A DNA stretch of 64,000 nt from Escherichia coli (GTDB lineage: Bacteria; Pseudomonadota; Gammaproteobacteria; Enterobacterales; Enterobacteriaceae). The notes beneath the pieces were generated by a model. The model was not told where the DNA came from and ran no database searches. It was given only the letters and a program-made list of their open reading frames with translations. Position numbers and translations under genes: made by a program. The stretch lies in assembly GCF_024223415.1 (NCBI RefSeq), contig NZ_CP100500.1. The stretch is one strand, 5' to 3'. Below, one piece after another: positions 61,925-64,000 of the stretch. The first letter of the stretch is position 1; each line of letters opens with the position of its first letter.

Positions 61925-62379
61925 TGGAGTTAATGGTCGTTCATCCACATATTTTCTGGCTCAGTCTCGGCGGTTTGCTGCTGGCAGCCGAGATGCTGGG
62001 CGGAAATGGTTATTTGTTGTGGAGCGGCGTGGCAGCGGTGATTACCGGCCTGGTGGTCTGGCTGGTGCCGCTGGGTTGGGAGTGGCAAGGGGTGATGTTT
62101 GCCATCCTGACGCTGCTCGCCGCCTGGCTGTGGTGGAAATGGTTGTCGCGGCGGGTGCGCGAACAAAAGCACAGCGACAGTCATTTAAACCAGCGCGGGC
62201 AGCAGCTGATTGGCCGACGTTTTGTGCTGGAATCTCCGCTGGTCAACGGGCGCGGTCATATGCGCGTCGGTGACAGTTCATGGCCTGTCAGCGCCAGCGA
62301 GGATCTCGGCGCAGGTACGCATGTTGAAGTCATTGCGATAGAAGGGATAACGCTGATCATCCGTGCGGTCATCGCCTGA
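61921..62379 (+). CDS. ybbJ: NfeD-like membrane protein YbbJ
   Basis: 152-aa ORF overlapping the qmcA stop; N-terminal TM helices plus C-terminal OB-like domain. Confidence 0.85.
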
Positions 62380-62462
62380 TGCGACGCTGACGCGTCTTAT
62401 CATGCCTACAAAATATGCCCGAATCGTAGGCCAGATAAGGCGCTTGCGCCGCATCCGGCATA
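62380..62462. repeat. REP palindromic units downstream of ybbJ
   Basis: ...GCGACGCTGACGCGTCTTATCATGCCTAC... and GTAGGCCAGATAAGGCGCTTGCGCCGCATCCGGCA. Confidence 0.6.
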
Positions 62463-62481
62463 TAGCCGAGTAGAGGCAAAA

Positions 62482-62844
62482 TTACTCTTCCCTGCCTTTA
62501 CCCATACTTTTTTGGTCTTCATCCGGATAGTGTTTTTTTAGATATTCCAGGACGTTTTTATTGACCTTGTGTTGGGTATACACCCACCCTTTCCAGTAAT
62601 CAGGCTGGTCCAGGTAAACTTCTGGCGGAATGGTGAAATCAGAAAGCGTTAACCATTCGGCTAACAGATCGGGGTTTCGTTTCTGTATCAACTGCAACAG
62701 CATAATCAGCGACATGGCAGAGGCAGGAGCCGTACTATCGCCGCTTAAATACTTCCACACTGTCGACCGGTTCGAACGAAAAAGGATCGGTAGCAATGCC
62801 CGGTCCAGATTCATTTCATTAAAAATCTTCTCAAATTCATTCAT
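62482..62844 (-). CDS. Hypothetical protein (120 aa), not recognised
   Basis: ORF MNEFEKIFNEMNLDRALLPILFRSN... occupying the position where cueR would be in K-12, but not CueR-like. Confidence 0.45.
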   Translation of the reverse strand: MNEFEKIFNEMNLDRALLPILFRSNRSTVWKYLSGDSTAPASAMSLIMLLQLIQKRNPDLLAEWLTLSDFTIPPEVYLDQPDYWKGWVYTQHKVNKNVLEYLKKHYPDEDQKSMGKGREE

Positions 62845-63210
62845 TTAAATTTTCCTGCCTGGCGTAAACCTCTTAAAAATTGAGATTTATCAAAGAAACG
62901 CATTTTAGCACACATCAGGAACCGCTTCACGTTTAGTCCAGAAACAGAATTTATTTCGCTTATCAAAACAAGTCTTTACTCTTTTTTACATTGAAAGAGC
63001 ACGAAATGTTTTCCTTTTTTATTTATAAAAGAAACAATTTTTGTTTCTTATTGGTGGTGTTTACGCTTACACCAAACAAAAATGCGCTTTACATCACATA
63101 AATGGCGGCGTAGATTTCGATCAAATTGCAACGCAGTTTATTTCTTAAAACAATATTATTTGTTTCTTATAGAAACATTAATACGACTTATTTTGAACAA
63201 GAGAAAATGA

Positions 63211-64000
63211 ATGAAAACTGTAAACGTAGCTTTACTGGCACTCATAATTTCAGCAACATCCAGCCCTGTTGTTTTAGCTGGTGATACCATTGAAGCAGCG
63301 GCAACAGAGCTTTCAGCCATTAACTCTGGCATGTCGCAATCGGAGATTGAGCAGAAGATTACCCGCTTTTTAGAACGCACAGACAACAGCCCCGCTGCGT
63401 ATACCTATTTGACTGAACATCACTACATCCCTTCTGAAACACCTGATACCACTCAGACTCCCACTGTCCAGACAGATCCTGACGCAGGACAAAAAACCGT
63501 TGCCGCTACAGGTGATGTACAGACAACTGCCCGTTATCAGAGCATGATCAACGCCCGACAGTCTGCGGTAACTGACGCCCAGCAAACGCAAATTACAGAG
63601 CAACAGGCGCAGATCGTAGCCACACAAAAAACGCTCGCCGCGACTGGAGATACGCAAAATACCGCGCATTATCAGGAGATGATTAATGCCAGACTGGCGG
63701 CTCAAAATGAGGCTAATCAGCGCACCGCCACTGAACAAGGGCAGAAAATGAATGCGCTGACAACCGATGTGGCAGCACAACAGCAAAATGAAAGGACTCA
63801 ATACGATAAACAAATGCAAAGTCTGGCGCAGGAGTCTGCCCAGGCACATGAACAAATTGACAGCCTGTCACAAGACGTAACCCAAACGCACCAACAGTTA
63901 ACCAACACCCAAAAACGGGTTGCAGATAACAGCCAGCAAATTAACACGCTCAATAACCATTTCAGTTCGCTAAAAAACGAAGTTGATGACAATCGTAAAG
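63211..64000 (+). CDS. Secreted Gln/Thr-rich repeat (coiled-coil-like) protein, 5' partial (runs off window end)
   Basis: Open frame from ATG 63211 to the window end, absent from the ORF track because it has no stop; signal peptide MKTVNVALLALIISATSSPVVLAGD; internal repeats ATGD(V/T)Q(T/N)TA(R/H)YQ(S/E)MINAR. Confidence 0.5.
   Translation, partial: MKTVNVALLALIISATSSPVVLAGDTIEAAATELSAINSGMSQSEIEQKITRFLERTDNSPAAYTYLTEHHYIPSETPDTTQTPTVQTDPDAGQKTVAATGDVQTTARYQSMINARQSAVTDAQQTQITEQQAQIVATQKTLAATGDTQNTAHYQEMINARLAAQNEANQRTATEQGQKMNALTTDVAAQQQNERTQYDKQMQSLAQESAQAHEQIDSLSQDVTQTHQQLTNTQKRVADNSQQINTLNNHFSSLKNEVDDNRK

Follow-up and report, generated by a model that had tools for sequence, protein, structure and literature searches.

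What is encoded next to ybbJ at the end of a 64,000-nucleotide stretch of Escherichia coli DNA (contig NZ_CP100500.1 of assembly GCF_024223415.1; the whole stretch is referred to here as the window), and can its plus-strand gene, which has been published as the gene of the transcription factor GmrA, encode a DNA-binding protein? We have identified this locus, of which positions 62482-64000 carry a divergent gene pair, as O-island 29 (OI-29) of enterohaemorrhagic E. coli (EHEC) O157:H7. Taking all results together, we consider it highly probable that the locus is an OI-29 cassette with a helix-turn-helix (HTH) protein, a YadA-family trimeric autotransporter and accessory genes, and that the published function of GmrA is doubtful. 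The locus itself is no discovery. What goes beyond the existing annotation is the clash between the sequence and the function of GmrA, the fold of the z0640 protein, and a conserved module with a candidate operator; the conflict over GmrA is the most notable of these results.

Identity and layout of the locus

OI-29 is an already described island that has been catalogued since 2001. The original prediction called this an unrecognised locus, and that description has to be given up: the locus corresponds to OI-29 (S-loop 43) of O157:H7, the island DNA being 98.9% identical over 2456 bp, and its genes have already been deleted in a published study. The window contains the ybbJ-proximal 60% of OI-29, which is a 2.56-kb accessory cassette of four genes, with z0640 running leftward, followed by the rightward z0639, the lipoprotein gene z0638 and then a gene for a 67-residue single-pass membrane protein. 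In O157:H7 Sakai, ECs_0549, ECs_0548 (annotated "adhesin") and ECs_0546 (annotated "lipoprotein") lie at the same site between ybbJ and cueR. OI-29 has been described as 2,643 bp with z0638, z0639 and z0640, each of which was deleted (Yang et al. 2018, PMC5826968), and ECs0548 of S-loop 43 has been listed as a "Saa-like protein" among adhesion genes (Ogura et al. 2007, PMC2323221).

The locus is laid out in the window as follows.

62340-62500, no strand: palindromic units of the repetitive extragenic palindromic (REP)/bacterial interspersed mosaic element type, at the island edge on the ybbJ side
62482-62844, minus strand: gene of the 120-residue protein, with an ATG start (orthologue of z0640 / ECs_0549)
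62845-63210, no strand: divergent intergenic region, 366 bp, 30.6% G+C against 50.8% in the whole window
63211-64000, plus strand: YadA-family trimeric autotransporter gene (z0639 / ECs_0548, the published gmrA), first 263 of 338 codons

A divergent pair around an AT-rich region had been predicted, and it was found at exactly these positions. The genes 5' of the locus in the window are cnoX, fetB, fetA, qmcA and ybbJ. The autotransporter open reading frame (ORF) starts with the ATG at 63211 and shows no stop codon up to 64000, giving 263 codons; as had been supposed, it is missing from the ORF list because its stop codon falls outside the window. We therefore read the locus beyond 64000 from strain SCU-316 (locus L001), a relative that is identical over window positions 62380-64000 and shows 3 differences in 10,621 aligned positions. 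This segment of 1621 nt is found at 100% identity in several complete genomes. In L001, the full autotransporter ORF occupies 9832-10848 and encodes 338 residues, and it is followed by the gene of a 140-residue lipoprotein, a 67-codon ORF and then cueR. An early stop codon just past the window, which would leave a short and non-conserved ORF, is ruled out, as the frame in L001 reaches 338 residues, ends in a YadA anchor and has homologues in other taxa. The locus had also been placed where K-12 has cueR. The site directly after ybbJ is right, but cueR is displaced and sits 2.56 kb further on: the stop codons of the convergent ybbJ and cueR genes are separated by 2558 bp in L001 and abut, with 0 bp between them, in K-12.

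The plus-strand ORF is the gmrA of Yang et al. 2018, as seen by mapping the supplementary primers of that study (PMC5826968). The arms of the gmrA deletion lie at 63172-63210, directly before the ATG, and at L001 10849-10886, which are the 38 nt directly after the stop codon. Of the cloning primers, one (ATGAAAACTGTAAACGTAGCTTTA) matches the ORF start over 24 nt (MKTVNVAL), and the other is complementary to the last codons (…GVGYSF), as the reverse complement of ...GGCGTGGGATATTCGTTC. The published z0640 primer maps beside the 120-residue ORF, and the z0638 primers, read from the sequence, flank the lipoprotein gene.

The autotransporter protein

Judged by its sequence, the z0639 product is a short, headless trimeric autotransporter of the YadA family (type Vc) that consists mostly of coiled coil. 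The following elements lie in the window part of the gene.

63211-63279, plus strand: signal peptide, MKTVNVALLALIISATSSPVVLA/GD
63484-63603 and 63619-63738, plus strand: two 40-residue repeats (residues 92-131 and 137-176)

On rule-based inspection, the signal peptide has one Lys in the n-region, a hydrophobic core with a mean Kyte-Doolittle value of 1.6, and V-x-A at positions -3/-1; equivalent signal peptides are present in all six homologues from other taxa. A small N-terminal region separates it from the repeats. The passenger (residues 25-264) contains 15.4% Gln, 14.2% Thr and 12.5% Ala. Aligned with each other, the two repeats reach a BLOSUM62 score of 117, compared with 45.7 +/- 7.5 (maximum 79) for shuffled sequences. 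Both carry the motif (R/H)YQxMINA(R/K), at residues 104-116 and 149-161 (63520-63558 and 63655-63693), which is kept in homologues from Pseudocitrobacter and metagenomes (RYQGMINARH, HIQGMLHAKQ) and marks the z0639 family of autotransporters. Residues 180-265 show a hydrophobic period of 3.5 residues (power 75 against a shuffle maximum of 39 +/- 9.5), which is that of a coiled-coil stalk built of heptads.

The membrane anchor, at about residues 265-338, lies past the window end, where the gene continues for 75 codons beyond 64000. PF03895 (YadA_anchor) matched residues 279-338 with 45 bits against a gathering cut-off of 22.7, and the Pfam and NCBIfam scan of the protein gave nothing else above threshold. 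When the C-terminal 95 residues were compared by phmmer with anchors of solved structure in the Protein Data Bank (PDB), AtaA (1.3e-7), Hia (6e-6) and YadA (8e-3) were matched. The stalk end aligns with the helices of Hia and AtaA that enter the barrel, so that the stalk is continuous with the anchor, and the protein ends in ...GVGYSF with a terminal Phe. The second product of the locus had been predicted to be a secreted Gln/Thr-rich repeat protein. Its signal peptide and coiled-coil repeats were recognised correctly, but the repeat region is not a free protein; it is the passenger of a protein with a YadA anchor.

Homologues in other Enterobacterales have 293-583 residues, and the length and modules of their passengers vary. 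The six translated homologues keep the signal peptide, the anchor and the stalk end (…RV..N..Q…LN.NFS.LK..VD.N..EA.AG). In the passenger-only search, all matches of at least about 270 residues carry PF03895; Pfam gives no domain for the passenger, whose family is limited to Escherichia and close relatives. In tblastn comparisons with plasmids and phages, the similarity did not extend beyond the stalk end and the anchor, covering 29-57% of the protein from its C-terminal side at 30-60% identity, and no named protein, such as Saa or Eib, came up as a close relative. Public databases without exception name the z0639 protein an adhesin or a YadA family protein. E. coli also has an allele of 477 residues. 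In L017 (2212-3645; also L016 3334-4383), RefSeq gives a 349-residue "YadA-like family protein", and the open frame with the signal peptide has 477 residues from 2212. The RefSeq start of this long allele is probably wrong, and the protein would have about 471 residues from the Met of MNTVKLSLLAVVVA. It has an extra passenger segment of 130 residues that is similar to part of a metagenome homologue (L009).

The 120-residue protein

The 120-residue protein is confidently modelled as an HTH protein of the Xre/Cro type, with the N-terminal domain at about residues 1-65. The AlphaFold2 model, which was built from 19 sequences including seven distant homologues, with some close ones dropped, has a predicted local distance difference test (pLDDT) score of 91.6 and shows the five-helix fold of lambda-repressor-like HTH domains. 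An earlier model from 15 close homologues was poor (pLDDT 63) and was discarded. The residues that are invariant in the family (L18, P19, I20, L21, R23, N25, R26, S27, K31, Y32, L33 and G35) lie within the predicted HTH (L18-G35). The C-terminal half is helical, comprises about 55 residues and matched no fold or family. The family is tiny, with 21 clusters found by word search and 19 clusters among 1.84 billion representatives by exhaustive search.

Among the best structural matches of the model are two antitoxin HTH domains, those of HigA2 and MqsA. At the level of sequence, Pfam and NCBIfam gave no match above threshold. Pfam MqsA_antitoxin scored 13.5 bits against 30, and weak matches to it were obtained in the HTH part of 10 of the 15 family members scanned (best E 0.007). 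Using hhalign, the expected HTH region of E. coli MqsA was aligned with the family, at a level that is not significant (E 0.025, probability 1.9%), and a profile search of the family against PDB sequences returned chance matches only.

The intergenic region

Between the two divergent genes we found the following elements.

62894, 62940, 63030, 63043, 63162 and 63171, no strand: AGAAAC/GTTTCT motifs
62902-62912, minus strand: putative extended -10-like element TGTGCTAAAAT for the 120-residue protein gene
63029-63049, no strand: perfect 9-3-9 palindrome AAGAAACAA-TTT-TTGTTTCTT, candidate operator, about 40 bp upstream of the -35 element of the adhesin promoter
63088-63116, plus strand: putative sigma-70-like promoter of the adhesin gene (TTTACA, 17 nt, TAGATT), from a consensus scan (L001 9709-9737)
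63161-63177, no strand: 7-3-7 palindrome TGTTTCT-TAT-AGAAACA in the 5' leader, 34-50 nt before the ATG

The six AGAAAC/GTTTCT copies in 366 bp compare with 0.24-0.31 expected and with 28 copies in the whole 64 kb; none of 2000 mononucleotide shuffles and none of 1000 Markov-1 shuffles reached six. The 9-3-9 palindrome belongs to direct repeat D1 and to inverted repeats I2 and I7. At the other end, the predicted transcript start of the 120-residue protein gene overlaps the motif at 62894-62899.

These features recur where the same two genes face each other. AGAAAC ranks first among the 6-mers of six HTH-autotransporter intergenic regions taken together, five of which show enrichment (P<=0.002 each). 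Five of six diverse loci keep a copy at -39 to -41 relative to the start codon of the adhesin gene, and the copy on the predicted transcript start of the HTH gene is likewise conserved in position. Four lineages agree in an intergenic length of 367-379 bp, and blocks of sequence are conserved as well: TGTG.TAAAAT..GTTTCTT (columns 322-344) is present in all six aligned regions, and the adhesin promoter lies in the most conserved block of the alignment (columns 103-137), in which GCTTTACA and GGCGTA are invariant. Our generic scan for promoters and terminators performed overall no better than on shuffled sequence, and the sole match retained is the one that coincides with this conserved block. 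AGAAAC was not found in the 767 bp upstream of an autotransporter-lipoprotein pair of Enterobacter asburiae that has no HTH gene. We infer that the 120-residue protein would bind the AGAAAC sites and control both promoters as the regulator of the locus.

The published function of GmrA and alternative explanations

Several observations weigh against our reading of the locus. In the study of Yang et al. 2018 (PMC5826968), deletion of gmrA reduced motility, flagellation and the fliA, fliC and motA transcripts; purified His6-GmrA shifted a fliA promoter fragment in an electrophoretic mobility shift assay (EMSA); this promoter fragment was enriched 7.75-fold in chromatin immunoprecipitation (ChIP) with GmrA-3xFLAG; a gmrA plasmid increased motility even in K-12; and deletion of z0640, for which z0639 expression is not reported, gave no motility phenotype. 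The motility phenotype, above all the increase in K-12, is unexplained if GmrA is an autotransporter, and it is the main evidence against a purely structural view of the protein. For the 120-residue protein, the HTH fold rests on a predicted structure, and the sequence matches to HTH families stay below threshold. Two further points concern the word "adhesin" and not the membership among autotransporters: the Pfam scan of the passenger found no head, neck, Hep_Hag, HIM, ligand-binding or stalk-repeat domain, and deletion of OI-29 left adherence to HeLa and Caco-2 cells unchanged (PMC5826968).

If the 338-residue GmrA were a cytoplasmic activator that binds the fliA promoter directly, its native function would be the published one. 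This explanation is supported by EMSA with competition, ChIP with quantitative PCR, fliA epistasis, complementation and phenotypes in eight strains, together with the statement of the authors that CDD predicts a DNA-binding domain in GmrA (PMC5826968), but we consider it unlikely. Our Pfam and NCBIfam scan of the z0639 protein found no DNA-binding family, the sole DNA-related names being coiled-coil matches far below threshold to SMC (23 bits against a cut-off of 567), Rad50, SbcC and DndD, and the passenger-only homologue search added just YadA_anchor proteins and no DNA-binding family. The conserved Sec signal peptide and the above-threshold YadA anchor predict export, and the protein is acidic (pI 4.7, net charge about -15). 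Moreover, the EMSA construct carries its N-terminal His6 ahead of the signal peptide, and the ChIP construct carries 3xFLAG after the terminal Phe. Considering how the Sec machinery and the beta-barrel assembly machinery (BAM) recognise their substrates, such N- and C-terminal tags should prevent export or barrel insertion from proceeding normally; therefore, the protein in both EMSA and ChIP was probably mislocalised. The clone used for gmrA complementation begins at about 62892 (primer AAAGAAACGCATTTTAGCAC) and brings the whole intergenic region with all six AGAAAC motifs into multicopy, which may have confounded the complementation and the K-12 experiments. We consider the motility effect of gmrA to be real as a phenotype, and it is unlikely that the native protein exerts it as a cytoplasmic DNA-binding factor. 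It is also improbable that both views are right, such that the autotransporter precursor, a fragment or an untranslocated pool activates the fliA promoter in the cytoplasm and couples an outer-membrane fibre to flagella; GmrA would then be the first case of an autotransporter that is also a transcription factor. In a weaker form of the same view, the surface protein would raise fliA transcription through a signalling route from the envelope to the flagella, and the real DNA-binding protein of the island would be the z0640 HTH protein. Our literature searches found no paper that ties GmrA to autotransporters.

Two other explanations concern the nature of the locus and of its minus-strand gene. 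A previously unrecognised locus with a novel, freely secreted repeat protein, as in the original prediction, would agree with a passenger that has no Pfam domain and with a family confined to Escherichia and close relatives, but the gene runs on past the window into the YadA anchor, and the locus is OI-29, which has been annotated since the O157 genomes and studied experimentally; this explanation is refuted. The 120-residue protein could instead be an antitoxin of the MqsA or HigA2 type, or a generic island repressor unrelated to the adhesin. The structural matches to the HTH domains of HigA2 and MqsA and the weak MqsA_antitoxin matches across the family point in that direction, but Xre-type HTH domains are common to many unrelated regulators, no toxin-like ORF adjoins the gene in any of its contexts, and its sole constant neighbour is the divergent YadA_anchor gene, at a spacing of about 370 bp in five of six contexts. 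We consider an antitoxin or unrelated repressor very unlikely, and a dedicated regulator of the autotransporter locus remains the preferred role of the 120-residue protein.

Accessory genes and the module in other genomes

Besides its lipobox (LLAG/CSS), the 140-residue lipoprotein shows conservation of two other cysteines and of a C-terminal domain; it matched no Pfam family, with weak matches only to TraV and XAC1346. It follows the autotransporter in E. coli, Pseudocitrobacter, a further locus (L013) and Enterobacter asburiae, at 40-70% identity. The lipoprotein gene and the 67-codon ORF (L001 10933-11555) overlap by 4 nt (ATGA), which suggests translational coupling, and the 67-codon ORF ends 3 nt before the stop codon of cueR on the other strand. 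This fourth ORF is absent from the paper of Yang et al. and from older OI-29 annotations. Its product has a conserved counterpart in Pseudocitrobacter and a weakly conserved one in a single metagenome locus. Operons of an autotransporter and an accessory protein are represented by SadB-SadA of Salmonella and AtaA-TpgA of Acinetobacter, and the analogy with SadB and TpgA suggests that the lipoprotein and the 67-residue protein may act in biogenesis or anchoring.

Each homologue of the 120-residue protein whose context was checked faces a YadA_anchor gene. The genomic contexts, six in number, are distributed as follows.

E. coli: module between ybbJ and cueR
Three Pseudocitrobacter-type loci (L004 2797-5336, L005 2719-5336 and L006 2469-5336): module between qmcA and fetA
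Metagenome contig: module beside chemoreceptor genes
Symbiopectobacterium (L007 3520-5330): autotransporter and lipoprotein genes are pseudogenes
Two more distant contexts (a second metagenome context and one further genome assembly): HTH proteins 45-48% identical

The Pseudocitrobacter loci (named so by NCBI) encode a 111-residue HTH protein, a YadA-anchor protein of 363-473 residues, the lipoprotein and a membrane protein of 67-68 residues, and their qmcA-fetA site is two genes away from the ybbJ-cueR site of E. coli. No mobility genes flank the module at either of these sites. Decay of the module is seen in some lineages: Symbiopectobacterium retains an intact HTH gene, with an autotransporter that stops short of the anchor at 174 residues and a lipoprotein that is split into two ORFs, and L005 (2925-3458) has a frameshift in the lipoprotein gene. 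In Enterobacter asburiae (L010 3960-5471), the gene of a 293-residue YadA-anchor protein precedes that of a homologue (40% identity) of the OI-29 lipoprotein, in an unrelated setting of sugar-utilisation genes and with no HTH gene.

Island boundaries and distribution

OI-29 is present in 1416 of 5426 complete E. coli genomes, or about a quarter, in single copy and always on the chromosome. The left junction with K-12-like sequence is at about 62352, within the final 28 nt of ybbJ (62352-62379), which show 13 mismatches to K-12 compared with 0-3 per 100 nt further upstream; accordingly, YbbJ ends in LIIRAVIA in the window and in LHIRAVSS in K-12. On the other side, the 3' half of cueR (L001 11565-11742) has 17 mismatches to K-12 in about 180 nt, and the remaining flank differs by about 1%. 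From these divergent gene ends we conclude that the recombination that bounds the island took place within the flanking gene on each side. Our Rfam scan of the island returned sub-threshold matches to naRNA4, which is REP-derived, at L001 8961-9027 and 9050-9121 (window 62340-62406 and 62429-62500), and nothing else. IS1397, an insertion sequence of the IS3 family that targets REP sequences, adjoins the 3' end of the 120-residue protein gene in L016 (1-1326), at the place of the REP units of the window strain.

Past cueR, L001 (11963-19621) carries a type I secretion system and a giant adhesin similar to SiiEA/BapA, like ECs_0540-0544 of O157. In FDAARGOS_1261, OI-29 is present and this second island is reduced to a remnant (L017 4761-4858), indicating that the two islands are inherited independently.

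Proposed working of the locus and its significance

By comparison with the YadA family, the 338-residue precursor would be exported by the Sec pathway and cleaved near Ala23. Three C-terminal four-stranded sheets would then form a 12-stranded barrel through BAM, and the Gln/Thr-rich coiled coil would be threaded outward as a short, headless surface fibre, with the lipoprotein and the small membrane protein as putative envelope accessory factors. The HTH protein may bind the AGAAAC palindromes and thereby control its own promoter, where a motif lies on the predicted start, together with the promoter and leader of the adhesin gene.

Reviews count GmrA among the "regulatory proteins" of EHEC, whereas by every criterion applied here to its sequence it would be an exported trimeric autotransporter of the outer membrane. 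The DNA-binding claim needs re-examination, because the constructs used would keep the protein out of its normal compartment. The island encodes an HTH protein of a tiny, uncharacterised family together with a conserved candidate operator, which offers a directly testable regulatory circuit. The four-gene module recurs at more than one position in the genomes of several Enterobacterales, which suggests a portable cassette for an adhesin and its dedicated accessory factors. These results bear most on the fields of EHEC regulation and type V secretion.

Comparison with known systems

With YadA, Hia and AtaA, the z0639 protein shares a signal peptide, a coiled-coil stalk that leads into a four-strand C-terminal anchor with an aromatic last residue, and homology of the anchor. 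It differs from them in having none of the YadA head, neck, Hep_Hag, HIM and stalk-repeat domains of Pfam, and its (R/H)YQxMINA(R/K) motif and N-terminal 70 residues have no known counterpart. NadA of Neisseria has a similar layout with a mostly coiled-coil passenger, which in the z0639 protein is about 240 residues long; this likeness concerns layout, as the sequences of NadA, Saa and Eib were not directly compared.

The 120-residue protein resembles the Xre/Cro-type regulators HigA2, the C-terminal domain of MqsA, Aca2 and the controller (C) proteins of restriction-modification systems in its modelled HTH fold, with no significant sequence match to any HTH family. Unlike them, it has an extra helical C-terminal half of 55 residues that matches nothing. 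The gene arrangement can be likened, on the basis of layout, to SadB-SadA and AtaA-TpgA, in which a small envelope protein gene is likewise part of an autotransporter operon; here, the lipoprotein is kept with the autotransporter across genera, its gene lies downstream, and the gene of the 67-residue membrane protein follows.

With OI-29 (S-loop 43) of O157:H7, the locus shares its genes (z0638, z0639 and z0640, or ECs_0546, ECs_0548 and ECs_0549), their order and their site. The ybbJ-cueR interval of Sakai is 2634 bp compared with 2558 bp here, the surplus consisting of more REP units at the ybbJ end. The 120-residue protein of Sakai differs in its last residues (96% identity), and the adhesin/GmrA of Sakai differs by one residue from the protein encoded in L001, which is identical to that of the window in the shared part.

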